Source: Clostridia bacterium
Lineage (GTDB): Bacteria; Bacillota; Clostridia; Oscillospirales; Acutalibacteraceae
Assembly: GCA_017502965.1 (NCBI GenBank)
Contig: JAFVTZ010000174.1
Coordinates: forward strand, 1 to 26,055
Length of the DNA: 26,055 bases
Reading direction: 5' to 3'
Shown here: piece by piece, positions 1 to 26,055 of the stretch
Layout of the letters: every line of letters begins with the position of its first letter
Numbering within the stretch: the stretch's first letter is position 1
Made by a program: the position numbers and the translations under genes
Notes under the pieces: model-generated
Databases searched by the model: none
Told to the model about the DNA's origin: nothing
What the model saw: only the letters and a program-made list of their open reading frames with translations

Positions 1-3000
1 GTAATAGGCTTTTCGGTGATATTTCCGTCCATATCTACAAGGTAAAGAATACCGCCATTAGCCGCCTGATAAGACTTAGCGCCGTTGTTATAGGCAATTT
101 TAATATAAGATTTCTTTTTAGCACCGCTAAGGTCAACATAGAAAGATATTGCTTTTTGATTTTTGTTCATAACATTAGGCAGTGAATAGAAAGAAATTTC
201 TATCTGGTCTTTATCGTAAGGTGTGCCTGTGCTTTCTTCGGTAACAGTTGAAGGGTCAATATTAAATTCTGCGGCAGCAGTAAATTTAAGCATATTGTTA
301 TACCAAGAGAAATTGTTTGAATTAACAACTGAATGTTTACTTGCACTGAATGCACTAATCAAAGAACTTTTATTTGTAAACCACTCGTATTCACGAATAA
401 TCTCACCGCTGTGATACTTAGAATAGGTATAATTTGTAACCGGTGCGGCAGGTACAGGCTCATCAGATGTCACACCGTCAACATCGAGTGTGAACTGATT
501 GTTTTTATCGAGATATGCACCGTGAGTCGGAGAATAATAGTTGAATGTAACTTTGCTTCCGTCTTTAGAAAATTTGAGAAGCATAAGCAGGTTATGAGAA
601 TTGCCCCAGTCAAGCGCCTGACCGTCCACCAGAACACTTATAACCTTGTTGCCGTTCACACCCAAATCTTCTCTGTACTGGATATCAGGTATGGAAACAT
701 GACCGCCGATGGCCATTATAATATTTTCATGACGGCTTATAAGTTTATTCCAAAGATGGATACCGTGATTGTTTCTGCCTTCATACGAGCAATAACCTGT
801 TGTTCTGAAATCGGCATCATTATTTAAATATTCGTGGGTTATAACAATTATCTTACAGTCTTTATTCTTAGCGCAAACCTGATTTGCCCACTCAACAACA
901 TTGTCATAAGGCTCGCACATAAGGTTGAGAATAAGATATTTTGTATCGTTTACTGTTATGTAATAGTAAGCATTATCTATTTTACCCTCTTCCATAAATC
1001 CGCCGAACCAGGAATAAGTGGAAATCTCACTTGCGGGGAAATATGTGTTAAGATTTGTAGTGTTATTAGGAGCAACACTTCCGTCGTAAAAATCATGGTT
1101 TCCGCCAACAACAGACCAGCCGATACCGGCCTCAGCCAATTTATCGAAATTGTCTTTTGCCAAGATATATTCTTCGGCTCTGTCCTTATTTGTAATATCT
1201 CCTACACCCATAGCGAATTTAAGATTCAAGGCGTCCTTATTATCTATCATCCACTGATACATTTTGGAGAATCCGTCGCTATCGCCTGTGACAGCCTCTC
1301 TCTGGTTTGCTATCTGAGTATCAGGAAGGACTGCAAAGGTATATCCGTCCTCAGGAATAGCACTATACTTGGCGTAAGTCTCGTCTTCAGAGGTGATGTA
1401 AAGGTCATAAACCGCTAAATCATAGTTTCCTGCTATATCAGCAAATGCATTTTCGCCGTTTAATGTCCACGCGGAAATAAGACCATCCTGAACGGTTGAC
1501 TCATTTATAGCAGAATTCAGAATTTCACTTGAGGTAAGTGCCTTACTCCAGAGTTTAAGGTTTGCCACCTCTCCGCCGAATGTTGCAGTACCGAGTTCGT
1601 CATGTATATAGTGACCTATTGTTAACGGATGATAAGGTTTAACCTCTGCAAATCCCTCGGGGATTTCGGTACTGCTTTGTAGTAAACCGTTGATATAGCA
1701 GTTTACAGTTGCAGATTCAGTATTTTTAACAAAAGCAATATGTGTCCACTTATCTGTACGAAGGTCAACATCACTAATTACAAAATTAACTGCAAGACCA
1801 TCACCGTCAGAGAGATAAAGCACGGGATTTCCCGAAGCATTCATAGAAAGAACTATAGAATCGGTCGAAGTTGTATTCGCAATACGGTATTTATTAGCAA
1901 GAATTGTGCCTGCCGCTGTACCCTCAGGGATTTTTACCCAACCCTCTATTGTGTCAATTTCCTCTGCAATTTTAGTCTCTGTTTCAACAGGGGCATCAGC
2001 CGAGAACACAGTGCCCTCTTCCAGAACAGGTTTTATGGTTGTAAGATAACCGAAATTATCGTTAGTAATAACATCGCCGTAATCTTCAAAAGCAATATTT
2101 CTTGTGGTTATTGAAACTGAATATGATTCCTCTGCACTGTTCTTATAAAGGTCTTTTTGTGTGCCGTCATAAGTATACCCCTCATGAGTTACTTCTTTAT
2201 ATGTGTAACCTGCGGTTGTCATACTCTTCAAAGACTCAAAAGGAATTACAACTGTTCCCTTGAATCCTGCAGGCAATGAGAATGTGGGCCATTCACCTGT
2301 GCCTACATTAACTGTCTCAACAGCACCATTTTCCCAGATCGCCAAAACCGGTCCGCCAGATACTATGTATCTGCGTGTATATTTGTTTTTATCATAATTT
2401 GTATTCTTAACATTATATGTAATCTGAAGAGCGGGAGCAGTTGTGAGATTTGAGAAATCCACATCATACATCATAGCCTCAAAGCCTTGTGTTGCAGGAT
2501 AATCCAAATCTACTGTATAACCGTAATTAAATGTTCCCTCTGTCCAGGCATCATTTGAAAGAGTATGCTTCAAAGCGCCTTCTTCTATTGAGAATGTGGG
2601 TAATCCTTTGCCGTTATCAGCCCAGCCTGTAGGAACTGTTGCCTCAGCATCGCTGAAATCATTGTCGACATATTCAGCATTGTAATCAAGCGGGAAATTT
2701 ACATTTGAAACCCAACGAACATTACTAAAGGCAATAGTCTCATTAGCAGGAATACAGCTGCGGAACTGGAAATACAGCATATTACTTGTATAACTTTTAT
2801 GATCCAAGCGCCATTCATCATTCAAAAACTTGCTGAAATCACCTTTACCGTCAGTAACCCAAGACGCACTAAGGTCATTGTGGTTTGCTACACCCTCAGA
2901 AGCAAGGAACATTGTTTCAGGAAAATAAAAAGTTCCCTTTTCACCGGGATAAACAAAAATTGTAGCACTGTAATCATTAGAAGAACTGCTCATTGTACGG

Positions 3001-3584
3001 GTTATCAGTTCAGGTTCAGGATTTTCTTCGGTAGCCTCAGGCAAGAAATAATAGGTCTGACCTGCAGTAGCATACATCATATCATCACCTGTAGTTGTAC
3101 GCATTGCAAATCTTGCACTCATTTTCGAGGTCGTTGAAGTTATGCCCTTAGCATCCACATCAACTGCAATATAATTTGTATCACTCTCTACCAAAGATTT
3201 AAGCACAATGTTAATCGTAAAGGTTCCTTTTTCGGCGCCCTCTGTAAATTTTGCCCAACCGTTTTCTATAGTTGTTGTGCCGCCACTAACACTTGCATAA
3301 GCGGATGCATTTGTTGCAGCGCCGGGGTCCCAGTCAACTGTGGTGGTCTTAGCCTCTCCGCTACACATTGCTCTGAAGGTATCTGCCTCATAGGGGAAAT
3401 TATTTGCAACCTTATAGGTTGTAACCGTTTTGGGGAAATCAGGCTCAGAGAGTGTGATTTCTGCCGCAAAAGAATTATTATTTTCTATTTCAGTTGCAGT
3501 TTCTTCCGCCATAACTGCGCCAAAAGGCATTGCCGCCAAAAGCACAAAAACTGCAAGAAAAATTGAAAGAATACGTTTTTTCAT
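1..3584 (-). CDS. Secreted multidomain protein (partial, runs off the left edge, >=1194 aa): signal peptide, two ~210-aa CBM-like modules, LamG jelly-roll, YvnB-like metallophosphoesterase, third module. Paralogue of the 766-aa neighbour.
   Basis: Not in the ORF track because no stop codon falls in the window; translated by hand. ATG at 3584 with RBS AAAAGGAG upstream. N-terminus MKKRILSIFLAVFVLLAAMPFGAVMA. Same frame confirmed at 2051, 1439, 1379 and 479. LamG motifs TIEGWVK, WTHIAFVK, CYINGLL, FGGEVANLKLWSKALT (~1965-1430). Metallophosphoesterase motifs FAVLPDTQ, GVGDITN, GGNHD, ITHEY, GGHVS (~1340-690). Flanking modules align with the 3690..5990 protein. Confidence 0.9.
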   Translation of the reverse strand, partial: MKKRILSIFLAVFVLLAAMPFGAVMAEETATEIENNNSFAAEITLSEPDFPKTVTTYKVANNFPYEADTFRAMCSGEAKTTTVDWDPGAATNASAYASVSGGTTTIENGWAKFTEGAEKGTFTINIVLKSLVESDTNYIAVDVDAKGITSTTSKMSARFAMRTTTGDDMMYATAGQTYYFLPEATEENPEPELITRTMSSSSNDYSATIFVYPGEKGTFYFPETMFLASEGVANHNDLSASWVTDGKGDFSKFLNDEWRLDHKSYTSNMLYFQFRSCIPANETIAFSNVRWVSNVNFPLDYNAEYVDNDFSDAEATVPTGWADNGKGLPTFSIEEGALKHTLSNDAWTEGTFNYGYTVDLDYPATQGFEAMMYDVDFSNLTTAPALQITYNVKNTNYDKNKYTRRYIVSGGPVLAIWENGAVETVNVGTGEWPTFSLPAGFKGTVVIPFESLKSMTTAGYTYKEVTHEGYTYDGTQKDLYKNSAEESYSVSITTRNIAFEDYGDVITNDNFGYLTTIKPVLEEGTVFSADAPVETETKIAEEIDTIEGWVKIPEGTAAGTILANKYRIANTTSTDSIVLSMNASGNPVLYLSDGDGLAVNFVISDVDLRTDKWTHIAFVKNTESATVNCYINGLLQSSTEIPEGFAEVKPYHPLTIGHYIHDELGTATFGGEVANLKLWSKALTSSEILNSAINESTVQDGLISAWTLNGENAFADIAGNYDLAVYDLYITSEDETYAKYSAIPEDGYTFAVLPDTQIANQREAVTGDSDGFSKMYQWMIDNKDALNLKFAMGVGDITNKDRAEEYILAKDNFDKLAEAGIGWSVVGGNHDFYDGSVAPNNTTNLNTYFPASEISTYSWFGGFMEEGKIDNAYYYITVNDTKYLILNLMCEPYDNVVEWANQVCAKNKDCKIIVITHEYLNNDADFRTTGYCSYEGRNNHGIHLWNKLISRHENIIMAIGGHVSIPDIQYREDLGVNGNKVISVLVDGQALDWGNSHNLLMLLKFSKDGSKVTFNYYSPTHGAYLDKNNQFTLDVDGVTSDEPVPAAPVTNYTYSKYHSGEIIREYEWFTNKSSLISAFSASKHSVVNSNNFSWYNNMLKFTAAAEFNIDPSTVTEESTGTPYDKDQIEISFYSLPNVMNKNQKAISFYVDLSGAKKKSYIKIAYNNGAKSYQAANGGILYLVDMDGNITEKPI

Positions 3585-3604
3585 ATATTCTTCTCCTTTT
3601 AAAA

Positions 3605-3654
3605 TGTAGGGGCGGATATTATCCGCCCGTAAGCGACTAACAGACGCCCCTACA
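3605..3654. repeat. GTAG-type REP-like inverted repeat with a nested hairpin
   Basis: TGTAGGGGCG (3605-3614) and its exact reverse complement CGCCCCTACA (3645-3654). Inner perfect stem GGGCGGAT-ATT-ATCCGCCC (3610-3628) follows GTAG. It is GC-rich in an AT-rich spacer and flanked by A/T runs. Confidence 0.7.
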
Positions 3655-3689
3655 AAAACTTAAAATATTTTGAAAACACAGATTGAAAT

Positions 3690-5990
3690 TTAATTTATGA
3701 ATGCATCTGCAAGAACTTTCTTAAGTCTTACAATATCTCTGACATCAACAAAACTGTCGCCGTTGATATCGACATCCAAGCCGCCTTCAGCATCCATAAG
3801 TCCTTTACGAAGATTTACAAGGTCAGCATTTTCATATTCTTCAAGATAGTCGATATTGCCAAAATAGCAAACCTCTGACGGTGTTGCTTCGAGCAGATAA
3901 AGTACAAGTTTAGCAGTGTTTTCCTGTGTTTCTTTAAGAACAGTGGAAGTGTTTATGAATTCACCCCAACCCCATTCTGTTGCATAAGAAGTGAAAGGAA
4001 TAACAACTGTTCCCTCGAAACCTGCAGGGAGAAGAACAGAACTCCAGGGATTAGACTCGATAATATGGGATGTAATATTTCCGTCTTTATCGATAAGATA
4101 TACAACACCGCCGATACCCGGCTGATAAGCGTTATCATTATCTGCAAAATAGTTTGCTCTGAGATAGGTCTTCTTTGTAGAAGCACTGCAGTCAATATAG
4201 AAAGAAATGGCAGTCTGGTCTGCACTGGTTACATTAGGAAGACTTGCATTTGTGATACCGATAGCGGATTTTGTATAGTATGTAGCTTCACTCTCATCTG
4301 TAGCCTCGGTTTCGATATTAAACTGAGCGGGTGCTGTAAATTTAAGCATACCGTTTTCTACAGAGAAATTATCAAGACTTACATTTGAAGTATTACCGTC
4401 TGCCCAAGTACCGAGTACAGAACTGTTTATTTCAAAACCGCTGTAAGTACGGATATTTTCAGAAATATGGTATTTTGAGTAGGTATAATCTGCAACAGGA
4501 ACAGGAAGCTCGCTGTTAGTGAGGAAACCAAAGTCGTCGTAGGTTATAACGCCGCCCTTATCCGCAAAATCAATATTTCTTACATCAATTGAAACAGAAT
4601 AGTTATTTATATCATCTGTAACAAAAAGATCGGTTGTTTTGCCGTCATAAGTATACTCACCAACTGTAAGATTCTTTAATGACTCAAAAGGAATTACAAC
4701 AGTTCCTTTGAATCCTGAAGGCATAGAAAAGGTCGGCCAGTTATCAGTTCTGACTGTAAGTGAATCTACAGAGCCGTCAGCATTAACAAAATAAACCGGA
4801 CCGCCGGAAACTATAAAACGGCGTACATAGTCATTTTTGCTGACATTTGTATTCTTTACGTTATAGGTAATCTGGAAAGCAGGTGCAACAGAAAGTGCTG
4901 ATAAATCCACATCGAACTTTAATGCCTCAAAGTTTTCGGTTATAGGATACTTAAGTTCTGCAGTAGAGCCGTAATTAAGATTATCTGCTGTCCATTCTTC
5001 GTTTGAAAATTCATGACTCCAAACGCCGTCTGCAACCGACATAGACGGAACACCTTTGCCGTTACTTGCCCAGCTCGAATAAACAACCGATTCAGCATTG
5101 CTGAAATCCTCTGCAATATACTCATATTTATAAGTATCCGAATAATTAGTAGCTTCAGAAACCCACTGGATATTGCTGAAACTCAAACTGTCGCCTACTG
5201 CCATACCGCCCTTGAAATTAAATTGAATAGAAACAAGACTGCGGTGAGTTTGTGAAACATACCAACTTGCAGGTACGAGTTTTGAAAAATCGCCGTTCCA
5301 AGCGCCCGATTTTGTTTCGGGGTCTACATAGTTATTATAACCCTCTACAATACCGAACAAGGATTCGGGAAGATAAAGAGTACCTTTATCGCCCTTGTTT
5401 ATATAGAAAGGAGTGTTGTGCCATTTACCGTAAGTACCGTTTGTTTTTCTTGTTTCAACTGAAGGATTCGGATTTTCGTCAGTAGCATCAGGCAAGAAAT
5501 AATACTCCGAAGCTGTAAGAGCATAAATTGTCTGCTCACGGTTTGATACAACAAGCTGACAAGCTTCATCATTATTAAGTCCCGAAGCATCTATATGAAC
5601 TGCAATATAAGAGGTATTTTCCTCTGTAAGAGACTTGAATAGTAACATTGTATGAACGTCTTTATTGTCCTGTATTTCCTCGGTTGCAGGAGCATTTACA
5701 GTGGCTTTTCCCTCAGTAACTACAAGGGTTGCCGCAGTCTCACTGCCGAATCTTGCATAATCCTCAGGGGCGGTTGTGACACCGTTATCCCAGCCTTCAG
5801 GTTCTCTTGTTAAGGACTGGAAAGTATTGGCATCTTTTGGGAAATTATTTGCGGGCTTATATTCAACATAAGTCGGAAATTCAGTTTTACTAAGGGATAT
5901 ATCCCAAGCTGCCGAAGCACCGAAAGACATCGGCAAAGCCGCAACCATAACTAAAAGCGCGAGTAGAATGGAAAGTATGCGTTTTTTCAT
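3690..5990 (-). CDS. Secreted 766-aa protein with three tandem ~210-aa putative carbohydrate-binding beta-sandwich modules and a C-terminal degenerate dockerin-like domain
   Basis: Signal peptide MKKRILSILLALLVMVAALPMSFGASA and RBS AAAAGGAG. Internal repeats: GGPVYFV..PSGFKGTVVIPF, GGVVYLI..PAGFEGTVVIPF and YYFL..KGDKGTLYLP. The modules end in SFSNIQWV, TYDDFGFL and YFGNIDYL. The C-terminus has DINGDSFVDVRDIVRLKKVLA. Confidence 0.85.
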   Translation of the reverse strand: MKKRILSILLALLVMVAALPMSFGASAAWDISLSKTEFPTYVEYKPANNFPKDANTFQSLTREPEGWDNGVTTAPEDYARFGSETAATLVVTEGKATVNAPATEEIQDNKDVHTMLLFKSLTEENTSYIAVHIDASGLNNDEACQLVVSNREQTIYALTASEYYFLPDATDENPNPSVETRKTNGTYGKWHNTPFYINKGDKGTLYLPESLFGIVEGYNNYVDPETKSGAWNGDFSKLVPASWYVSQTHRSLVSIQFNFKGGMAVGDSLSFSNIQWVSEATNYSDTYKYEYIAEDFSNAESVVYSSWASNGKGVPSMSVADGVWSHEFSNEEWTADNLNYGSTAELKYPITENFEALKFDVDLSALSVAPAFQITYNVKNTNVSKNDYVRRFIVSGGPVYFVNADGSVDSLTVRTDNWPTFSMPSGFKGTVVIPFESLKNLTVGEYTYDGKTTDLFVTDDINNYSVSIDVRNIDFADKGGVITYDDFGFLTNSELPVPVADYTYSKYHISENIRTYSGFEINSSVLGTWADGNTSNVSLDNFSVENGMLKFTAPAQFNIETEATDESEATYYTKSAIGITNASLPNVTSADQTAISFYIDCSASTKKTYLRANYFADNDNAYQPGIGGVVYLIDKDGNITSHIIESNPWSSVLLPAGFEGTVVIPFTSYATEWGWGEFINTSTVLKETQENTAKLVLYLLEATPSEVCYFGNIDYLEEYENADLVNLRKGLMDAEGGLDVDINGDSFVDVRDIVRLKKVLADAFIN
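3700..3830 (-). other. Dockerin-like C-terminal domain: first Ca2+ loop missing, second intact
   Basis: Helix ADLVNLRKGLM, then a linker, then the canonical D-x-N-x-D-x-x-x-D-x-x-D loop DINGDSFVDVRD and helix IVRLKKVLA. Confidence 0.65.
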
Positions 5991-6043
5991 TATTTTTTCT
6001 CCTTTTTAGTTTAGCCTCTTTTTGCTAAATTTTTATTACCACA

Positions 6044-6061
6044 GGGCAGGAAATCCTGCCC
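6044..6061. other. GC-rich intergenic hairpin with no U-tract (RNA stabilising or processing element, or a degenerate REP)
   Basis: GGGCAGG-AAAT-CCTGCCC, a perfect 7-bp stem 7 nt downstream of the 6069 stop on the minus strand. It is followed by TGTGGTAAT rather than poly-U. Confidence 0.5.
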
Positions 6062-6068
6062 GTTGATA

Positions 6069-9455: not shown

Positions 9456-9475
9456 AATGTCAATACTCCTTTCCA

Positions 9476-10795: not shown

Positions 10796-10827
10796 TTTGG
10801 TTTCCTCTCTTTACATATAATATACAT

Positions 10828-17183: not shown

Positions 17184-17301
17184 TTATAGTCCTCCCAATT
17201 TTAATCTACTTAAATTTTAACCAATTTTTGAACATCTGTATATGTCGGTTTTCTCTTTTTTGTATGTACTTTTTTCTATACCGAATGGGTTTTTTGTGCA
17301 T

Positions 17302-17329
17302 ATTGTAACAAAAAGGCTTGTGTTACAAT
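17302..17329. promoter_or_regulatory. Perfect 9-10-9 inverted repeat in the divergent intergenic region: operator and/or symmetric pair of extended -10 elements
   Basis: ATTGTAACA-aaaaggcttg-TGTTACAAT. Each arm reads TGnTACAAT (extended -10-like) pointing outward towards its own operon. Confidence 0.55.
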
Positions 17330-17380
17330 GTAAAAGTAAAATGTGGCATATTATGCACTCAATCAGAAAGAGGGTTGTTT

Positions 17381-20155
17381 ATGAAAAAGCGAATATTGTC
17401 GGTTATGCTCGCTTTAATTGTATCTGTTTCTGTAATGAGCACCCCTGCTTTTGCACAGCAATCTGCTCAAAGCACTTCAGAACAGTCAACTGAAATTACC
17501 GCAAATCAAAACAGCAAGAATTCCTATGCCGATTATCAGTCGGAGAATACTGATAAAAAAGCAGGAGATGATGTCTGCTATGCTGTTTTGCCGCAGGATA
17601 AAATTTCAGGCGAAAGCAAAGACTTTAATTTTCAGATAAATATTAAAACCCCAGGATTATATAATCTTGAGGTTGAATACACCTGCCTTGAAGGCGGTAT
17701 TTCGGCAATCGAGCGAAAACTCCTTATAAATAACAGTCTGCTTTTTGAAGAACTTGAAGACATCAGTTTTGAACGCACCTTTGAAGACGAAACCGAAATC
17801 ACACAGGACAGTCTCGGAAATGACATAATCCCCTCTCAGATTGAAAAAAGTATATCGCAGACCAAGCGAATAAATGATATTTCGGGTTATTACAACAGAC
17901 CTTATGAATTTTATTTTGAAGCAGGCACTGTAAGTTTTTCCTTAATAGGCATCGTAGGAAATATGGAAATCACCTCAATAAAAGCAGTACCGCCTGAAAA
18001 ACTCCCCACTTACAGCGAAACAGAAAAGATTTATGAGCAAAAAGGCTACAAAGAAGCCTCAAAGCCTCTTGAAATCATACATACTGAGAATTCCTCTCTC
18101 AAATCTTCTTACACCTTAGTTCCCACAACCGACCGTTCTTCACCTATAACAAAACCTTATTCTGTATCAAAACTCAAACTGAATACTATCGGCGGTGACA
18201 GTTGGGCAACAACCGGAATGTGGCTTGAATGGAACATATCAGTTAAAGAAAGCGGACTTTACAGAATAAATTTCCACTACCGCCAGAATGTTGCAAAAGG
18301 TGTTACCGTTTTCAGAAAACTTTCTATTGACGGCGCAGTTCCTTTTGAAGAAGCCGCCGCTCTCCCCTTTGTTTACAACCGTTCTTGGAATATAGATGAA
18401 TACAATGATTACCTTTACTACCTTGAAGCGGGTGAACACACTTTAAGACTTGAATCTGTGCTTGGAGAAATGGGCGCGGTGCTGATGGAAAGTGAAGACT
18501 TTATGTATAGTCTCAACTCCCTCTACCGTGAAATTATTACCGTTACAGGCACATCTCCTGACATTTACCGCGACTATAAAATAGAAAAGCGAATTGACCG
18601 TCTGTCCGAAAGACTTTCAGGTCTTGCTGACAGCGCATACGCACTTATTAAAAAGATAAACGATATTTCAGGCGGAAAAAACAGTGTGTCTGTACTGCTT
18701 GAATCTTTTGCAGAACAACTCAAACAAATTGCAAAAGAACCGTCAGAAATCACCGAACAGTTAAGCGATTTTAAAAACAACATCATATCTCTCGGTGAAA
18801 CCATTTCTGAAATGCGCAAAACTCCGCTTGAACTTGATTATATTTACATAAGCGACCCGAAAAGTGAGTTGCCCAAAGCAAACGGCAGTTTCTGGCTTTC
18901 GGTAAAACACGAAATTTCCGCATTTTTCCTCTCTTTTATTGAGGATTACAGTTCTTTTGTGAGCGACAGCGAGGGCACAACCACCTCTATAGGAGTCTGG
19001 GTTTCAAGCGGACGCGAGCAAGCAAATATTATTAAAACACTTATAAATTCAAGTTTCACTTCTTCGGGAATTTCAGTAGACCTTAAACTTGTTCAGGGCG
19101 GTCTTTTGCAGGCAATGATAGCAGGAAACGGTCCTGATGTTGCCCTTAACCTCGGACAATCAGACCCTGTAAACTATGCACTTCGAAATGCGGTTTACGA
19201 CCTGACAAAATTCAGTGATTATATTTCTGTATCAAAGCGTTTTAATCAGGGTGCACTGACTCCGTTTACATTCAGCGGCGGTGTTTATGCTTTACCTGAA
19301 ACCGAAAGTTTTTATATGCTTTTCTACAGAAAAGATGTACTCAAAGACCTTAATATCACTCCCCCCGAGACTTGGGACGAACTTTACGGTATTCTGCCGA
19401 TACTCAGCCGTAACAATATGGAATTCGGACTGCAGTCTTCGCTTAATACTTTTGCTACCCTGCTTTATCAGAACGGCGGCGAGTTTTACCGCAGCGATGC
19501 TACGGCGAGTTCGCTTAATTCTCAGGTAGGACTTAATACATTTACACAGTGGACAGATTTTTATACATCCTATAAACTTTCTGTTTCATTCGATTTTGCA
19601 AACCGTTTCAGAACAGGTGAAATGCCAATGGCTATTGTTGATTACACCTCTTACAATACCCTCACTGCATTTGCACCGGAACTCAGAGGTTACTGGGATT
19701 TCTGCGAAATACCCGGAAACTTTGACCCTGAAACCGGAGAAATCAACCGCACCACCGTAAATTCGGTTTCAGGAGTTTCTATCCTTGCATCTTCAGAACA
19801 TAAGGACGAAGCCTGGGAATTCCTTAAATGGTGGGTTTCTGCAAATACCCAGACAAACTATGCCACAAAAATCGAGAGTGTTCTCGGAGAATCTTCCCGT
19901 CACGCTACTGCCAACCTTGAAGCAAGACAGAATATCGGTTGGTCGGCAGAGAGTCTTAAAAAACTCAACAATCAGGCAAACTGGGTTATAGGAATACCCG
20001 AAATTGCAGGCGGATATTACACTTCCCGCAATATCACAAATGCTTTCAACAGCGTTATCAACAAGGGAACAGTTCCAAACACTACACTTAATAACTATGT
20101 CGGCGTTATAAACCGAGAAATAGAATCCAAACGCAAAGAACTTGGAATAGACTGA
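17381..20155 (+). CDS. Large (924 aa) extracellular solute-binding protein with two N-terminal CBM6/35-like domains, a coiled coil and a C-terminal sugar SBP domain
   Basis: Start moved from 17318 to the ATG at 17381 (RBS AGAAAGAGG). Sec signal MKKRILSVMLALIVSVSVMSTPAFA. CBM-like IKTPGLYNLEVEY and VKESGLYRINFHYRQ..RKLSIDG..YLEAGEHTLRLE. Helical region ~18500-18830. SBP motifs AGNGPDVAL, MLFYRKDVLKDLNITPPETWDEL, FRTGEMPMAI and EAWEFLKWW. Confidence 0.88.
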   Translation: MKKRILSVMLALIVSVSVMSTPAFAQQSAQSTSEQSTEITANQNSKNSYADYQSENTDKKAGDDVCYAVLPQDKISGESKDFNFQINIKTPGLYNLEVEYTCLEGGISAIERKLLINNSLLFEELEDISFERTFEDETEITQDSLGNDIIPSQIEKSISQTKRINDISGYYNRPYEFYFEAGTVSFSLIGIVGNMEITSIKAVPPEKLPTYSETEKIYEQKGYKEASKPLEIIHTENSSLKSSYTLVPTTDRSSPITKPYSVSKLKLNTIGGDSWATTGMWLEWNISVKESGLYRINFHYRQNVAKGVTVFRKLSIDGAVPFEEAAALPFVYNRSWNIDEYNDYLYYLEAGEHTLRLESVLGEMGAVLMESEDFMYSLNSLYREIITVTGTSPDIYRDYKIEKRIDRLSERLSGLADSAYALIKKINDISGGKNSVSVLLESFAEQLKQIAKEPSEITEQLSDFKNNIISLGETISEMRKTPLELDYIYISDPKSELPKANGSFWLSVKHEISAFFLSFIEDYSSFVSDSEGTTTSIGVWVSSGREQANIIKTLINSSFTSSGISVDLKLVQGGLLQAMIAGNGPDVALNLGQSDPVNYALRNAVYDLTKFSDYISVSKRFNQGALTPFTFSGGVYALPETESFYMLFYRKDVLKDLNITPPETWDELYGILPILSRNNMEFGLQSSLNTFATLLYQNGGEFYRSDATASSLNSQVGLNTFTQWTDFYTSYKLSVSFDFANRFRTGEMPMAIVDYTSYNTLTAFAPELRGYWDFCEIPGNFDPETGEINRTTVNSVSGVSILASSEHKDEAWEFLKWWVSANTQTNYATKIESVLGESSRHATANLEARQNIGWSAESLKKLNNQANWVIGIPEIAGGYYTSRNITNAFNSVINKGTVPNTTLNNYVGVINREIESKRKELGID

Positions 20156-20173
20156 TAGAAAGGCCGTGAAAAT

Positions 20174-21094
20174 ATGATTTCTGAAAAATTTAAAATACGA
20201 CTGAAAGAAACGGCGCATCAGGCTAAACGTGAGGGCGCAGGCTATCTGTTTATTGCCCCCTTTATGATTCTTTTCATTCTTTTCACAGTACTGCCTGTGC
20301 TGATTTCGGTTGTTCTGAGTTTTACTTATTACAATGTGCTTGAAGCCCCGAGTTTTATAGGTTGGGAAAACTACACCCGCCTTATTTTGAACGACGATGT
20401 TTTTCTGCAAGCCGTTAAAAACACCTTTGTTTATGCCTGCATAACAGGACCTGTGGGATACTTTGCAAGTTTTATTCTGGCCTGGCTTCTTTGCGAAATG
20501 GGACCTACTATAAGGTCTATTCTCGTATTCATTTTTTACATACCCTCAATGTCATCAAGTATGTATGTTATCTGGTCATACCTTTTCAGCAGCGACTCTT
20601 ACGGTTTTATAAACTCAATGCTGCTGAAAGTCGGCATAATAAATTCGCCGATACTCTGGCTTCAGAACTCAAAATACATACTTGCAATCATTATTCTTGC
20701 ATCTTTATGGATGTCACTCGGAACATCATTCCTCACCTTTGTTGCAGGTATTCAGAGTTTCGACAAAACCTTGCTTGAAGCAGGCGCTGTTGACGGTATA
20801 CGCAACCGTTTTCAGGAACTCTGGTATATCACCCTGCCCACTATGCGTCCTCAACTTATGTTCACAGCGGTAATCACTATAGCACAGGCTTTTTCGGTAT
20901 CGGATATAGCAATGAACCTTGCAGGTCTTCCCTCTGTAGAATATGCAGGTCACACAATAGTTACCCATCTTCTTGACTACGGTAACATCCGTTTTGAAAT
21001 GGGTTACGCCTGCTCTATTGCATCGGTTCTGTTTGTTATAATGATAACTGCCAATAAGTTAATAACTATGTTTATTAGGAGAATAGGTAAATGA
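20174..21094 (+). CDS. Carbohydrate ABC transporter permease (MalF/UgpA-like)
   Basis: GYLFIAPFMILF..FIGWENYTRL. EAA loop LLEAGAVDGIRNRFQELWYITLP. FEMGYACSIASVLF. About six TM helices. Confidence 0.95.
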   Translation: MISEKFKIRLKETAHQAKREGAGYLFIAPFMILFILFTVLPVLISVVLSFTYYNVLEAPSFIGWENYTRLILNDDVFLQAVKNTFVYACITGPVGYFASFILAWLLCEMGPTIRSILVFIFYIPSMSSSMYVIWSYLFSSDSYGFINSMLLKVGIINSPILWLQNSKYILAIIILASLWMSLGTSFLTFVAGIQSFDKTLLEAGAVDGIRNRFQELWYITLPTMRPQLMFTAVITIAQAFSVSDIAMNLAGLPSVEYAGHTIVTHLLDYGNIRFEMGYACSIASVLFVIMITANKLITMFIRRIGK

Positions 21095-21966
21095 AACTGA
21101 ATATTTTAAAGCGGTATCACCGAAAAAAACTCAACCGCTCAAGGGCAATGACCTTTTTCATTTATCTGGTACTTCTGCTCATTGCCTGCTTTATGAGTTT
21201 TCCTATGGTTTATGCGGTTTCAAACTCGCTTAAACCTATTGAGGAACTTTTCCTCTTTCCCCCTCGCATTTTTGTTATCAATCCAACTTTTGATAACTAT
21301 CTTGACCTTTTTGACATTATTTCAAACTCGTGGGTACCTTTTTCCCGTTATCTTTTCAATACAGTTCTTATCACAGTTATGGGTACACTCGGTCAGGTTT
21401 TCATTTCATCCCTTGCGGCTTACGGACTTGCGAAATTCAAGTTCCCCGGTGTTCAGTTCTGCTTTAACCTTATAGTGTTCTCGCTTATGTTCACCTCTAC
21501 CGTTACCGCAATTCCGAGTTACATAATAATTTCAAAACTCGGCTGGATAGACTCTTATTTACCCCTTATAGTCCCCTTTTTCCAGTCGTCACTCGGACTG
21601 TATCTTCTGAAACAGTTTATGGAATCCTCTGTACCCGATTCTCTCATAGAAGCCGCCCGAATTGACGGTGCTTCCCATTTCAGAATCTATTTCAGGATAG
21701 TTATGCCGCTTGTAAAACCCGCATGGCTTACCCTTATAATTCTCTGTGTGCAGAGTCTCTGGAACTCAACAGGCGGTGTTTATATCTACAGCGAGGAATT
21801 AAAACCTTTGCCTGTAGCCCTCAGCCAGCTTGCAACAGGCACTATTTCCCGAAGCGGAGTGAGTGCGGCAGTTTCGGTGGTTATGCTGGTAGTTCCCGTA
21901 GTTGTTTTCCTGCTTTCTCAGCGTCAGGTGCTTGAAACAATGGCAACCTCGGGTATGAAAGATTAG
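21091..21966 (+). CDS. Carbohydrate ABC transporter permease (MalG/UgpE-like)
   Basis: ATGA overlap with the upstream permease. LAAYGLAKFKFPG, EAA loop LIEAARIDGASHFRIYFRIVMPLVKP, and LKPLPVAL. Confidence 0.95.
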   Translation: MKLNILKRYHRKKLNRSRAMTFFIYLVLLLIACFMSFPMVYAVSNSLKPIEELFLFPPRIFVINPTFDNYLDLFDIISNSWVPFSRYLFNTVLITVMGTLGQVFISSLAAYGLAKFKFPGVQFCFNLIVFSLMFTSTVTAIPSYIIISKLGWIDSYLPLIVPFFQSSLGLYLLKQFMESSVPDSLIEAARIDGASHFRIYFRIVMPLVKPAWLTLIILCVQSLWNSTGGVYIYSEELKPLPVALSQLATGTISRSGVSAAVSVVMLVVPVVVFLLSQRQVLETMATSGMKD

Positions 21967-21976
21967 GGTGATAAAT

Positions 21977-24067
21977 ATGAAAAAGATTAAAAAACTTATA
22001 TGTTTTATCGTTTCGGCGATTATGCTTTTCTCTATCACCGCTTATGCCGAAACCTACCCCTCCTATAACTATCTTGCAAACGGCGAGATAACTTCTGTTC
22101 CTCAGCCTTTTGCCGTAGACGAAATTCTTTATGCCGAAAATTTCGGTGCGCTTTCTTTTGCAGGCGCAAAAGATATTTTCTGCGACAAGGACGGCAATAT
22201 ATATGTTGCCGACACTGAAAATGACAGTATAGCCGTACTTAAAAATGACGGCTCAACCGAAATAATTAAAGGTTTTACTTTAAACGGAAAAACTCAGACA
22301 TTTAATTCCCCGAGAGGAATTTGTGTTATGAACTCAAAACTCTATGTCTGCGATTATGAAAACCACAGAATTGCAATCATAGATTTAAAAACCCGTGAGG
22401 GCAGAGTTATAGAAAATGTTGTTTCCAAGATTTTGGACGAAGATTTTTCCTTTAACCCAAAGGGAGTTGCGGTTGATGAATATGACCGTGTTTACTGTGT
22501 TTCTGACGGACAGTATAACGGACTTATGGTGTTCGAAAAAGACGGCAGTTTCAGCGGATTTGTGGGAGCAAACAAAACATCTCCCAGTATCATAGACATT
22601 ATCTGGCGCAAACTTTCCACAAAGGCTCAGAAAGCACAGCAAAGTATCTCAATTCCTACAGAGTTTTCCTCTGTTACAATTGATAAGAAAAACTTTGTTT
22701 ACACTACAACCTCAACGGTTGATACATATAACCCCGAAGAATCAGAGCCTGTCAGAAAACAGAGCCCCGGCGGAGATAATATACTCAAACATTCTGCCGA
22801 CCTTTACCCCATAGGCGATATAGACTATTCTTACGATTCTGATGCTTTTTCGGGACCATCGCGTTTTTGCGATATTGCCGTCTGGGATAATATGATGTAC
22901 AGTGTTCTGGACCAGACAAGAAACCGCATTTTCACTTACGATTCAAACGGAAGTCTGCTTTTTGTTTTCGGAAGTTTCGGTGAAAACGAGGGTTATTTCC
23001 GCCAGCCTGTAGCACTTACTCTGAACAAAAACCGCCTTTATGTTCTCGACTCCAAAACAGGGGCTATAACGGTTCTTTCGCCGACAAATTATGCCGACAA
23101 ACTTATAACCGCTGTTGATTACACCTCAGAGGGAGATTACAACAGTGCACTGTCCGCCTGGTCAAATGTGCTTGAATATAACACCAACAATGAACTCGCC
23201 TACCTCAATATTTCCACCATTCTTCTCAATCAGGGTGACTATGAGGGTGCTATGGTATATGCAAAACAGGCAAACAACCAAAAGGCTTATTCAGAGGCCT
23301 TTGCTCAGGTGCGCTCAAAATTCATAGGCGAAAATATCGGCGCAATCATAATCGGTGCTATATTTGCAATAATAACCATTTTTATTCTTTATAAACTCGG
23401 CTGTAAATTCAAGGTTTTAACCCGACTTAAAAACCGCTCGAAAACCGTTGCCGCTCTCGATTACGGAAGATACATTTTATATGCTCCGTTTGACGGATTC
23501 TGGGAGCAAAAACGGGAAAAACGGGGAAATATTGCTTCGGGAATAGTTATAATGGTTTTCCTTTTCCTTAGTTTCTCTCTTGCAAGCGCATTTACGGGAT
23601 TCAGTTTCACAACCCCGAAAGACGAACTTACAGAGTTTAACCTTTTACTGGAAATCGCAAAAACAGTTCTGCCAATAGGACTCTGGTGCATTTCAAACTG
23701 GTGTATCACAGCGCTCATAGAAGGAAGCGGAAATCTTAAAGAAATATTTATTTCGACCTGTTTTGCGCTTATTCCTTACACAGTTGCAAGCCTTATTTCA
23801 ACCCTTTTAAGCCATTTCCTCACCCTTGACGAGAAACAGGTGCTCACAATTATCGTGGTTATAGGTCTTGCCTATTCTGCTTTGCTGATAATTGCCGCAA
23901 CCTGCTCGGTTCACGATTGCTCTATGGGTAAAGCGCTTGTAACCATACTGCTAACCGTTATCGGAATGGTGATTATAGTATTTATTTCGGTACTTTTCTT
24001 TAATCTTTTAAATAAATTCTTTGATTTTGCAATCAGCATTTATAACGAACTACGACTCAGAACATAA
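21977..24067 (+). CDS. NHL-repeat beta-propeller + TPR + TM + Yip1-domain fusion membrane protein (~696 aa)
   Basis: ATG at 21977 (GTG at 21968 is the alternative) and a signal peptide. NHL blades DIFCDKDGNIYVADTENDSI, FNSPRGICV..LYVCDYENHRI, FNPKGVAVDEYDRVY and FRQPVAL. TPR-like YNSALSAWSNVLEYNTNNELAYLNISTILLNQGDYEGAM. One TM, then APFDGFWEQKREKRGN and about five TM helices typical of bacterial Yip1. Confidence 0.85.
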   Translation: MKKIKKLICFIVSAIMLFSITAYAETYPSYNYLANGEITSVPQPFAVDEILYAENFGALSFAGAKDIFCDKDGNIYVADTENDSIAVLKNDGSTEIIKGFTLNGKTQTFNSPRGICVMNSKLYVCDYENHRIAIIDLKTREGRVIENVVSKILDEDFSFNPKGVAVDEYDRVYCVSDGQYNGLMVFEKDGSFSGFVGANKTSPSIIDIIWRKLSTKAQKAQQSISIPTEFSSVTIDKKNFVYTTTSTVDTYNPEESEPVRKQSPGGDNILKHSADLYPIGDIDYSYDSDAFSGPSRFCDIAVWDNMMYSVLDQTRNRIFTYDSNGSLLFVFGSFGENEGYFRQPVALTLNKNRLYVLDSKTGAITVLSPTNYADKLITAVDYTSEGDYNSALSAWSNVLEYNTNNELAYLNISTILLNQGDYEGAMVYAKQANNQKAYSEAFAQVRSKFIGENIGAIIIGAIFAIITIFILYKLGCKFKVLTRLKNRSKTVAALDYGRYILYAPFDGFWEQKREKRGNIASGIVIMVFLFLSFSLASAFTGFSFTTPKDELTEFNLLLEIAKTVLPIGLWCISNWCITALIEGSGNLKEIFISTCFALIPYTVASLISTLLSHFLTLDEKQVLTIIVVIGLAYSALLIIAATCSVHDCSMGKALVTILLTVIGMVIIVFISVLFFNLLNKFFDFAISIYNELRLRT

Positions 24068-24084
24068 ATTGGGAGGTGCGATAA

Positions 24085-26055
24085 ATGAAAACTAAATTTT
24101 TAGCCATTTTTTCGGCGGTTTGTATTATCGCAACCGCCCTTTCAGGCATAGAAACCTTTGCCGAAGAAAATATTTCTGTGGCACAGACCGATAATTTCTA
24201 TACAATGGCTGATGAAAATTTCGAATTCACCCTTTCGGGTGAAAACGGATGCTTTTCAGTTAAAGACAAAACCACAGGCAATATCTACCGCTCAAACCCT
24301 GAAAACACAGACCCGTCACTTTTGCCCGAATCCCTTTATTCACAACTGACAGTTGAATATTTCAGCGGTTCTAATCAGATATTCACCTTTAACAGTTACG
24401 AACATTCATCAAAACTCGGGAATATGAGTGTCACCGCTAAAGACGGCAAAATCGCTGTTAAATATATTCTCGGCAAAGTAACTATTGACCGCACAGTTAT
24501 CCCCAACTGCTACACCGAAAAAGATTTCAAGAAATTTCTCAGCACAAACGGGATAGACAAAAAACTCGCAGAGTCGATATATGACCTTGCCGATAAAGAA
24601 CATTACGATTATGAGGGTTTGCTCGAAAAATATCCGTTACTTAAAAAGCAGGACCTTTATGTTCTTGACGAATATGCTCCCGATTACAAGATAGAAAAAC
24701 TTTACTATCAGATGAAAGATGCGGGATTTAACTATGAGCAACTCGAAGAACATAACGAAAAATACGGTCTTGAAACCGCAGAAAACAAAAATGTTCAGAT
24801 AACCCTTACTGTTAATTACGAACTTGCAGATAGCGGCTTTAAAGCAACGGTTGACTGTGATAAAATCTCGGTTGACGGAGATGTAACACTTACTGCAATA
24901 TATCTGCTTCCCTACTGGGAAGCGGCTTTCACCACCGAAAAGGGATATATGCTCTTGCCAGACGGCAGCGGAGCGCTTATAGATTTCGGGGACTCAAACC
25001 TCAATCTGAGCGATGTTGCAATCCCGCTTTACGGTAATGACGAAGCTATAACCTCAAAGCAGAAAACCGAATATTCACAGCGCGCAACCATGCCCTTTTT
25101 CGGAATTGCAAAAGAACAGAAAGGCACCTTCGCAGTTATAGAAAAAGGCGATGCTCTGGCTACTGTTTACAGCACTCTTGGTGGACGTACAGTTCCTGTC
25201 AGCACAACCTACTGCGGATTTACACTTCGCCCTTACGAAATGATAACCCTGCAATCGGTTTCAACCAGCACATCCTATAATATCTACAGTTCAGAACAGT
25301 ATGACGGCGAAATTTCGGTCCTCTATATGCTTTTATCGGCAAACGATTCGAACTATTCGCGTATGGCGGCGATTTATCGCAATTACCTGAGCGAAAAAGG
25401 ATTTCTTAGTAAAAATCAGAATTCAGGTTATCCACTTTCGATAGAATTTTTGGGTGCTATAGGTAAACGCAAAAATTTCCTCGGAATACCTTATACCCAG
25501 ACTTATGCACTCACCACTTTTGACGATGCACTTTCGGTTATAAACCGCCTGAAAACAGGCTCATCCGAAGAAATAACCGTTAAATACACAGGTTGGTGCA
25601 ACGGGGGACTTGTTCAGAAATATGCCGATAAAATCTCCCTTGTTTCAAAACTTGGTTCTAAAAAAGAATTTGAAAGTTTTAACAATACACTTGAGGGCTG
25701 GGATATCACCTGTTATTACGGCATTAAACTCCAGCAGATAAACCACAAACTCATAAATTCGCGTGTAAACATTCTCGATAAAGGAGTTAAATGTCTTTAT
25801 AACGATGTAGCATCTAAATCTATTTTTAATCTGGCTACTATGCAGCCTATGACCGAAAAAACTTTTGAGACTAACCAGAACGAGCCTCAGAGTTATCTCT
25901 TATCACCTAAACATCTGTCTTCTTTGACCAAAAAGGCAAATAACGGATTTGAAAACTTAGGAGCACAGTACACCTCTTTTGACGATTTGGGCTCACTTCT
26001 TTATTCGGATTTCTCCAAAAAGAATTATACCGACCGCCAGAAAAGTCTTGAAAAA
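24085..26055 (+). CDS. DUF5696-like secreted protein, predicted glycoside-hydrolase-like (partial, >=657 aa, runs off the right edge)
   Basis: Not in the ORF track because no stop codon falls in the window. RBS GGGAGGTG, ATG at 24085, signal MKTKFLAIFSAVCIIATALSGIETFA. Motifs GYMLLPDGSGALIDF, YGNDEA, MPFFGI, YTGWCNGG and DDLGSLLYSDF match my recollection of DUF5696 proteins, which occur in this gene context. Confidence 0.75.
   Translation, partial: MKTKFLAIFSAVCIIATALSGIETFAEENISVAQTDNFYTMADENFEFTLSGENGCFSVKDKTTGNIYRSNPENTDPSLLPESLYSQLTVEYFSGSNQIFTFNSYEHSSKLGNMSVTAKDGKIAVKYILGKVTIDRTVIPNCYTEKDFKKFLSTNGIDKKLAESIYDLADKEHYDYEGLLEKYPLLKKQDLYVLDEYAPDYKIEKLYYQMKDAGFNYEQLEEHNEKYGLETAENKNVQITLTVNYELADSGFKATVDCDKISVDGDVTLTAIYLLPYWEAAFTTEKGYMLLPDGSGALIDFGDSNLNLSDVAIPLYGNDEAITSKQKTEYSQRATMPFFGIAKEQKGTFAVIEKGDALATVYSTLGGRTVPVSTTYCGFTLRPYEMITLQSVSTSTSYNIYSSEQYDGEISVLYMLLSANDSNYSRMAAIYRNYLSEKGFLSKNQNSGYPLSIEFLGAIGKRKNFLGIPYTQTYALTTFDDALSVINRLKTGSSEEITVKYTGWCNGGLVQKYADKISLVSKLGSKKEFESFNNTLEGWDITCYYGIKLQQINHKLINSRVNILDKGVKCLYNDVASKSIFNLATMQPMTEKTFETNQNEPQSYLLSPKHLSSLTKKANNGFENLGAQYTSFDDLGSLLYSDFSKKNYTDRQKSLEK

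Follow-up and report, generated by a model that had tools for sequence, protein, structure and literature searches.

Here we describe a 26,055-nucleotide stretch of DNA (hereafter the window; positions 1 to 26,055 of the forward strand of contig JAFVTZ010000174.1, assembly GCA_017502965.1) from a Clostridia bacterium of the family Acutalibacteraceae, the genes of which appear to form the middle of a polysaccharide utilisation locus (PUL). The window is an entire contig (C191) of a metagenome-assembled genome (MAG) of 1.06 Mb that is divided over 201 contigs and is 67% complete, and sequencing runs containing its DNA are animal gut and faeces metagenomes, bovine and sheep among these. Eleven long open reading frames (ORFs) are present. 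The minus strand holds six of them (3-17183) and the plus strand the other five (17381-26055), and the two sets diverge from a gap of 197 bp. We refer to them as the left arm (g6 to g1) and the right arm (g7 to g11). A first-pass annotation, made from the sequence alone, had described this divergent surface and import layout and had counted nine of the eleven products as exported or membrane-bound. The layout stands, and on our recount from hydropathy and N-terminal sequences the number is ten: a signal peptide, a lipobox or transmembrane (TM) segments are found in every product except that of g5, which alone is cytoplasmic.

With contigs C135 and C115, which extend it on both sides, the window makes up a glycan-foraging locus of ~36 kb, of which it forms the central 26 kb. 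On the left, C135 contributes the 117 residues that complete g1 (100% identical to a same-species protein), followed by a gene for a 460-amino-acid (aa) protein and then by luxS on the other strand. On the right, C115 completes the DUF5696 protein encoded by g11 (C115:3-488) and adds two further permeases, a sensor kinase (His_kinase/HATPase_c) and a DUF5060 protein of 1010 aa that bears a bona fide dockerin. Same-species contigs (L025-L027, 98% nucleotide identity) share the left-hand gene order of the window. The search for permeases and a kinase beyond the contig ends that had been suggested at first pass was therefore rewarded, as C115 holds both a second permease pair and a kinase. The same annotation had noted neither a classical CAZyme nor a cytoplasmic enzyme; this is correct within the window and incorrect as a property of the locus, because the apparent lack of a kinase, of extra permeases, of classical glycoside hydrolases (GHs) and of cytoplasmic enzymes is an artefact of the points at which the contig ends.

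Reading leftward from the gap, the left arm begins with g6 (12270-17183, on the minus strand like the rest of this arm), which encodes a surface protein of 1637 aa. This protein has a signal peptide, five putatively beta-rich modules of ~200 aa without an assigned family, Ig-like domains and a C-terminal TM anchor (TM segments at 1-32 and 1596-1632). Pairwise identity among the modules is 13-24%; they share two short motifs with anchors at residues 141, 440, 731, 1037 and 1342 (a period of ~300 aa), and alternate with the Ig-like domains, for which Pfam returned Big_2 three times, Big_9 and Big-like. The next gene, g5 (10828-12273), overlaps the g6 stop by 4 nt and encodes a YesN-type response regulator (Response_reg 2.9e-24, HTH_18 1.8e-20) that joins a REC domain with the acceptor-type motif V-D-I-M-M-P to an AraC helix-turn-helix. 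A His_kinase of the PF06580 type occurs on C115 and in the related genome G001, and on the basis of synteny only we infer that g5 and the C115 kinase constitute a YesMN-type two-component pair. The product of g4 (9476-10795) is a lipoprotein solute-binding protein (SBP) of the CUT1 type (SBP_bac_1 1.7e-19, with a lipobox Cys); it is conserved beside g3 in five of five related loci, and its own arm has no permease genes. Both g4 and g5 had been omitted from the first-pass summary of this arm and were recognised through Pfam, and the parts that had been listed there are indeed present. They are g3 (6069-9500), a lipoprotein ORF of 1143 aa with a likely true start at 9455 (1128 aa) that encodes a candidate extracellular glycosidase, and the genes for two exported modular proteins, g2 (3690-5990) and g1 (3-3584).

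The left operon closes with the gene for the 460-aa protein on C135 (C135:425-1804, corresponding to L026:14012-15394). The protein is cytoplasmic, has no signal peptide and belongs to no Pfam family. It contains a Y-A-L-D-E-P motif reminiscent of the N-E-P at strand 4 of clan GH-A enzymes. We do not claim it as a clan GH-A glycosidase: hhalign against a GH42 alignment gave a probability of 3.6%, and a GH42 lead from Atlas clusters was weak (10% share).

The right arm, on the plus strand, opens with g7 (17381-20155), the start of which is most likely the ATG at 17381 with a ribosome-binding site in front. Its product is a 924-aa binding protein without a lipobox, in which the SBP domain comes after two CBM6/35-like modules (CBM, carbohydrate-binding module) and a helical region. 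Specifically, SBP_bac_1 was matched at 3.3e-23 (residues 584-844 of the longer ORF) after an extension of ~550 aa, and CBM_35 and Golvesin_C scored below threshold. Contigs from several unrelated metagenomes break at 19587-19636, inside g7, with loose ends that differ, and a stretch of ~35 nt at this position is apparently common to paralogous SBP genes and splits assemblies. Downstream are g8 and g9 (20174-21094 and 21091-21966), an ABC permease pair with BPD_transp_1 domains and multiple TM segments; g10 (21968-24067), which combines a signal or anchor segment, an NHL propeller, TPR repeats, a TM segment and a multi-TM Yip1 domain in one protein (NHL 6.4e-15, Yip1 4.7e-13, TPR_19 5.1e-05); and g11 (24085-26055), an exported DUF5696 protein (1.4e-98) of ~830 residues that the window cuts at residue 657, the remainder being on C115.

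Comparison with related loci indicates that the two arms belong together. The core g6-g5-g4-g3 is kept in five of five of these loci. Precisely the layout of the window recurs on contig 32 of G001 and contig 6 of G002 (g3 52% and 51% identical, respectively): g6 is preceded by a divergent right arm that comprises a giant SBP, two permeases, an NHL-TPR-Yip1 protein and a DUF5696 protein. At genus level, three relatives have the two arms side by side; those relatives for which the record bears a name are MAGs of Acutalibacteraceae or of 'uncultured Clostridia'. Identity to the G001 orthologue is 63% for g7 and 78-82% for g8 and g9, and the G001 arm continues with two permeases, a kinase, a DUF5060-dockerin protein, a GH123 and a paralogue of g3. 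Contigs of 9.5 and 11.9 kb in an independent metagenome study run from one arm into the other. Moreover, the contents of the arms are complementary: the left arm provides an SBP and a response regulator and no permease or kinase, and the right arm, together with C115, provides four permeases, a kinase and one SBP and no regulator. Synteny and gene content thus support the view that the two arms form one locus with complementary parts.

The co-conservation of the arms on which the first-pass annotation had relied is found in the window, the same-species contigs, G001 and G002, and breaks down in one related locus, L010. There the left core is preceded by a DUF5060 gene and has no right arm adjacent to it; therefore, the arms can separate. 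This arrangement is what one would expect of two unrelated systems lying back to back, a self-sufficient importer cassette and an independent surface set with its own regulator, and DUF5696 cassettes do occur many times per genome without left-arm genes. We nevertheless consider such a chance juxtaposition improbable. The divergent adjacency persists in the window, the same-species contigs, G001 and G002 despite ~50% protein divergence, the partner types missing from the left arm (permease and kinase) stand at the end of the right arm, and an intergenic block shared by the two arms is conserved. One gut metatranscriptome (run X20) yielded short contigs that are 95-99% alike to the window on g3, g6, g7, g10 and g11 and cover 14 of 30 bins. 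These contigs were assembled from a single library, derive from a related strain, and are compatible with expression of both arms; the indication is weak because DNA carry-over may have contributed to them.

The divergent control region (17184-17380), a spacer of 197 bp between the two strands' genes, contains the conserved block, which spans 38 nt (~17292-17329). Thirty-three of its 38 positions are invariant among the window, G001 and G002, and the remainder of the spacer has diverged. A palindrome between the arms had been noticed at first pass and does exist, as an inverted repeat (17302-17313/17318-17329) with arms of 12 nt and one mismatch. Its right arm corresponds to an extended -10 element facing g7 (TGT-TACAAT, ending at 17329; T-G-n-T-A-C/T-A-A-T), which a simple promoter scan missed because the -35 spacing is 15 nt. 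We rejected the palindrome as a symmetric operator, as its left arm is altered in G001 and G002 without compensation and its right arm, the -10, is retained. Because the -10 arm is kept and the symmetry lost in these relatives, the block is read as a putative g7 promoter with an adjoining activator site. The exact 12-mer at the left end of the block occurs once in the genome. A possible direct repeat, T-G-T-G-C-A-T, lies ~45 nt upstream in G001 and G002 and is degenerate in the window. Across the window as a whole, counts of terminator-like and promoter-like sites were not clearly above shuffled expectation.

A very rare component of the locus is g3. Neither g3 nor g2 matched any family above cut-off in Pfam or NCBIfam. 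The g3 family amounts to 13 homologue clusters among 5.8e9 proteins, all of ~1110-1133 aa and all without Pfam domains, and an exhaustive HMMER scan of 1.84e9 representatives recovered 113 relatives, of which only ~16 have the barrel in common. An AlphaFold (AF2) model of g3, built from a 14-sequence alignment (pLDDT 73 overall and >90 in the barrel), consists from the N- to the C-terminus of a beta-sandwich (~90-243), a second beta domain, a (beta/alpha) barrel (480-790), an alpha/beta domain and a terminal beta-sandwich. In Foldseek, residues 480-1135 of the model align with entire chains of the GH42, GH164 and GH35 types at E ~1e-17 and 11% identity. The top match in the VIA comparison (482-1132) was the GH164 beta-mannosidase Bs164, with Z 20.1, a root-mean-square deviation (rmsd) of 4.2 and 517 aligned residues; the corresponding values for GH42 were Z 19.2, rmsd 3.8 and 507. 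With Z of 17-20 against whole GH42 and GH164 chains, the modelled protein possesses their architecture of TIM barrel, trimerisation domain and beta-sandwich. Residues 76-244, for their part, resemble CBM-like domains at Z ~15 (for example 8ic1, rmsd 2.4, 144 aligned).

At the level of sequence this relationship is remote. There was no match of g3 to Pfam Glyco_hydro_42 at E <= 0.01, which places it outside GH42 by sequence, and a g3 family profile recovered only the trimerisation domain from the PDB (5xb7, E 5e-4). An hhalign comparison of g3 with a GH42 alignment gave 94% probability, and remote relatives having just the C-terminal half of g3 carry Glyco_hydro_42M. Searches with phmmer of PDB sequences returned no informative enzyme match for g3, the g1 insert or the 460-aa protein. 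Compared with Bs164 (6t5o/6t7g) and with the GH42 beta-galactosidases/alpha-L-arabinopyranosidase 5xb7 and 4oif, g3 shares the three-domain layout over residues 480-1135 and has conserved Glu residues that appear to fall near the catalytic positions. It differs in its identity of only 10-14%, in lacking the usual N-E motif at strand 4, and in being a lipoprotein with an N-terminal extension of ~440 aa that includes the CBM-like and the second beta domain. The first-pass proposal of a candidate new GH in the left arm has thus gained a predicted GH164/GH42 three-domain fold without a sequence family, and from the model it is credible that g3 is an unclassified glycosidase and a good candidate for a new GH family. 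In G001, a shorter paralogue of the catalytic region of g3 (30% identity; L019:17952-20000) follows the GH123 gene where the right arm ends, and no counterpart of this second copy was found in the genome of the window.

Four acidic residues are conserved in g3, namely E598, D713, D716 and E747, with E598 retained in 15 of 17 family members and E747 in 13. In Bs164 the acid/base is Glu-160 and the nucleophile Glu-297 (PMC7105311). The alignment of Bs164 with g3 is nearly collinear, at an offset of 445-451, so that these two residues land no more than a few positions from E598 and E747; in the hhalign comparison, too, E747 is matched to the GH42 nucleophile, at low local confidence. Because the offset places a catalytic Glu beside each of them and hhalign pairs E747, we propose E598 and E747 as the catalytic pair of the modelled enzyme.

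The two exported proteins at the left end of the arm are paralogues. The g2 product has 766 aa, comprising three tandem modules and one dockerin-like calcium-loop repeat, and its AF2 model (pLDDT 70) shows three beta-sandwich domains. Module 2 matches CBM11 (1v0a; Z 10.8, rmsd 4.3, 155 aligned in VIA), module 3 matches a Clostridioides difficile surface-protein domain (8smq; Z 10.9, rmsd 3.1, 140 aligned), and a further match is SGBP-B, a glycan-binding protein of the Bacteroides surface (7kwb; Z 10.7, rmsd 10.7, 281 aligned). The modules of g1 and g2 are thus predicted to be CBM-type beta-sandwiches without a Pfam family. Their earlier label, 'CBM11/CIA30-like', is reasonable at the level of fold, because modules 2 and 3 match 1v0a, 7kwb and 8smq among many other CBMs. 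The dockerin-like tail ascribed to g2 fared less well, as it scores 16.9 bits with Dockerin_1 against a cut-off of 22.9 and covers profile positions 3-23 of 57. The homologue of g2 in L010 passes Dockerin_1 (27.7 bits), and the genome of the window encodes cohesins, on C70 and C158, and at least 13 true dockerins.

The g1 protein, 1313 aa at full length, is in essence a g2 protein with a unit of ~510 aa inserted between modules 2 and 3, the unit being composed of a LamG domain and a variant metallophosphoesterase (Laminin_G_3 4.9e-18; Metallophos 26.6 bits, cut-off 21.5). Residues 1-491 of g2 are 42% identical to 1-515 of g1, residues 475-640 are 45% identical to 1024-1190, and full-length g1 orthologues end in a tail of the g2 type. 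Within module 1 of g1, blastn found nothing in the same-species contig L026 to match the segment 2716-3371, both flanks being 98% identical, and the L026 version of the module resembles g2 module 1 more. From the alignment, we regard this segment as a mosaic patch that differs between strains, in a surface module of the CBM-like type. In the spacer between g2 and g1 there is a GC-rich hairpin on the minus strand (3610-3628), with an 8-bp stem including six G-C pairs and a weak T-tract, which may be a partial terminator, an RNA-stabilising element or an attenuator of read-through into g1.

The phosphoesterase bears on the nature of the substrate, for which a phosphorylated glycan had been suggested at first pass. 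In such a case the locus would target, for example, a phosphodiester-linked polymer from which the g1 enzyme removes phosphate or which it cleaves. Consistent with this, the secreted LamG and Metallophos unit is kept in the window, the same-species contigs and G001, its motifs (DTQ/GD/GNHD/H/GHVS) are common to orthologues, the variant DTQ and GHVS being conserved rather than decayed, and HAD-type hydrolases occur in related loci. The activity of the domain is uncertain, however, because two classical metal ligands are replaced: motif I reads D-T-Q in place of the usual D-x-H and motif V reads G-H-V-S in place of G-H-x-H, with G-D, G-N-H-D and H retained. Furthermore, the locus has no other phosphate-related function, LamG-phosphoesterase paralogues elsewhere in the genome (on C89 and C44) show that the unit is not specific to the locus, and L010, L022 and L023 keep the core without it. 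With this single variant domain as its sole support, the suggestion of a phosphorylated target has lost ground, and we think it unlikely.

The right arm, judged by its gene order, is a copy of a widespread importer cassette composed of a giant SBP, a permease pair, NHL/TPR and Yip1 domains, DUF5696 and a second permease pair, which is complete across the window and C115. Paralogous cassettes in the same genome keep the long SBP and the gene order. In 30 of 33 loci, among them those of five genomes outside the family, the gene immediately before DUF5696 encodes a Yip1 homologue. DUF5696 is present in at least five copies in the partial genome of the window, in nine in G001, in 11-14 in G002 and in 17 in G005, a member of another genus of the family, and most genera of the family have zero to two. 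In a sample of the phylum it was found in five of 120 other genomes, once or nine times in each. This multiplication of a cassette in a few small genomes recalls the expansion of SusC/D in Bacteroidota. The example described here departs from the general cassette in that NHL-TPR and Yip1 are fused in one protein (g10), and in that a second SBP and a response regulator sit in the opposite operon; in addition, a rare, lineage-specific left-arm set is joined to it. A search of the literature on DUF5696, DUF5060, PDB entries 9gmj and 9gpc, and Yip1 in sugar or ABC importers found nothing relevant.

What DUF5696 might do was approached with a profile of 11 paralogues searched against solved proteins. 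The profile matched DagB (5opq, 5.5e-10) in three collinear stretches, NagBb (3.6e-06) and the periplasmic protein 8rzg. DagB is a GH129-like alpha-1,3-(3,6-anhydro)-D-galactosidase built from a beta-sandwich, a TIM barrel and an Ig-like domain, and its authors consider its family separate from GH129 (PMC5698469). Some Atlas clusters join DUF5696 with the GH101 and GH129 Pfam families, and an L-Y-S-D motif contains an Asp that hardly varies, a candidate catalytic residue. NagBb (5wzn, also 5wzq) is the GH129 alpha-N-acetylgalactosaminidase. The DUF5696 profile matches both enzymes, DagB collinearly over its N-terminal, barrel and C-terminal parts; unlike them, the DUF5696 proteins of the cassette extend a further ~200 aa at the N-terminus and invariably accompany Yip1 and ABC permeases. 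None of the 11 proteins matched the GH129 or GH101 Pfam models even at E <= 10, and for this reason we do not place DUF5696 in GH129. It is best described as a distant glycosidase-fold relative of GH129 and GH129-like enzymes. With the right arm a copy of a widespread cassette and DUF5696 a distant relative of GH129 and GH129-like enzymes, being 'built largely from unassigned domains', as the first-pass annotation had it, no longer sets the locus apart.

Taken together, these features lead us to read the window as the middle of a Gram-positive PUL (gpPUL), in which two operons are governed from one control region of 197 bp, and we put the probability of this reading at roughly 70%. It agrees with the 'capture-cleave-import' logic recognised at first pass. 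Transport is encoded by the SBPs g4 and g7 and by the permeases g8, g9 and the C115 pair, and regulation by g5 with the kinase found on C115 and in G001. As for enzymes, within the window there are fold-level or remote matches only (g3 and DUF5696), and GH123, GH130, GH3 and GH2 occur in the syntenic loci of relatives. Given the established gene content, folds, homologies, synteny and complementarity, we infer binding, catalysis, transport and regulation to proceed as follows. The CBM-like modules would hold a complex glycan at the cell surface, where it would be cut by g3, DUF5696, the GH5-like DUF5060 enzyme of C115 and possibly the phosphoesterase. The two SBPs would hand the products to two permease pairs powered by an unlinked ATPase of the MsmX/MalK type (one MalK-type ATPase signature was found, on C74). 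The kinase and regulator, in turn, would activate both operons via the conserved intergenic block.

Systems of this kind, gpPULs with CUT1 ABC importers and YesMN-type regulators, were reportedly described in Roseburia and Eubacterium rectale by Sheridan et al. in 2016. The locus resembles them in its extracellular glycan-active enzymes, SBP importers without an ATPase of their own, a histidine kinase with an AraC-type response regulator, and surface CBM proteins. It differs from them in that no component within the window falls in a recognised CAZy sequence family, that transporter and regulator parts are split between divergent operons, and that NHL-TPR-Yip1 and DUF5696 accessory proteins are present.

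The neighbourhoods of related loci provide hints about the substrate. The core is flanked by GH130, HAD, GH27/36, ROK and GH123 genes in G001, by two GH123, a GH3 and a HAD gene in L010, and by a GH2 gene in L023. The DUF5060-dockerin enzyme matches GH5 mannanases weakly and an unpublished DUF5060 structure strongly. From the GH neighbours in relatives, these GH5-like matches and the beta-mannosidase Bs164 as the best structural match of g3, the substrate is hinted to be a heteroglycan containing hexosamine, mannose or both. GH123, the beta-N-acetylgalactosaminidase family, is represented by four copies in three of the genomes G000-G003 (1-2.7 Mb, G000 being the genome of the window) and by one in G001, and it recurs beside the core locus in G001 and L010. 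In the four locus-bearing genomes GH101 was not found and GH20 was scarce or missing, and we therefore rejected the organism as a mucin degrader of the Limousia type. The Limousia 'mucinolysome' (PMC12997984) nonetheless offers parallels, as it belongs to the same bacterial family and the animal gut, and the genome of the window has cohesins, dockerins and a dockerin on the GH5-like enzyme. Apart from GH101, the two differ in that the half dockerin of g2 is below threshold and that most parts of the present locus are anchored by lipid or TM segments.

Several observations weigh against reading the locus as a gpPUL. None of the products of the window can be placed by sequence in a CAZy-type family, and in L010 the left core stands behind a DUF5060 gene and apart from any adjacent right arm. 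The RNA evidence consists of contigs assembled from one library and a related strain. The dockerin match of g2, a single calcium-loop repeat, is below threshold, and a whole-genome dockerin scan missed it. The flanking GH families differ between relatives, and the substrate may therefore differ too. The E598/E747 pair was assigned only through a range offset and a low-confidence profile alignment, and D713 and D716 are alternatives. Indeed, in one clade of g3 orthologues (P0011-P0013, of the L010 type, for example L010:10001-13348) all four acidic residues are replaced (E598N, D713N, D716N/G and E747D), so that catalysis may not be universal in the g3 family; these orthologues may be inactive or catalytically re-wired. 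The same clade gains an E at 661, yet retains the g6-g5-g4-g3 synteny.

The loss of acidic residues in this clade would also suit a left arm that serves chiefly in adhesion or the cell envelope, with g6, g2 and g1 acting as adhesins or wall proteins and g3 remodelling a glycan of the cell itself. The g6 protein is of the TM-anchored Ig-repeat type often annotated as adhesin, g2 has no catalytic domain, and module 1 of g1 varies between strains as expected of surface proteins under diversifying pressure. Set against this are the tight linkage of these genes to an SBP and a sugar-type two-component regulator, the GH130, GH123, GH3, GH2, ROK kinase and HAD genes that flank the core in relatives, and the resemblance of the modules to CBMs and to Bacteroides surface glycan-binding proteins. 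A role mainly in adhesion or the envelope is in our judgement the least probable of the alternatives, and we retain the interpretation of the locus as a gpPUL.

A bolder extension of the gpPUL interpretation can be entertained tentatively, as an idea that we would sooner doubt than adopt. NHL-TPR-Yip1 and DUF5696 could be integral subunits of an undescribed class of ABC sugar importer, which would couple final extracellular cleavage to uptake through two permease pairs and would be fed by a new clan GH-A-like family, that of g3, with a new specificity.

Beyond the locus on contig 32 of G001, a reverse transcriptase gene (RVT_1; L020:7030-9591) adjoins a PRTase-CE gene, and a MobL relaxase/Sel1 protein is encoded close by. 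The pair looks like a defence system of the retron or DRT type on a mobile stretch.

As a system, the locus is a recognisable gpPUL with unusually poorly annotated parts, and what is rare in it is the left-arm core, g3 especially. Acutalibacteraceae are common, mostly uncultured gut Clostridia, and how they harvest glycans is little understood beyond complexes of the amylosome and mucinolysome types. Our analysis places part of their foraging capacity in gene families that CAZyme annotation pipelines would not flag: rare lipoproteins with a predicted GH164/GH42 fold, CBM-like modules without a family, and a GH129-like/Yip1 cassette that is multiplied 9-17 times in some small genomes. Characterisation of the cassette would account for a gene set that is widespread in Bacillota, and that of g3 could found a new GH family.

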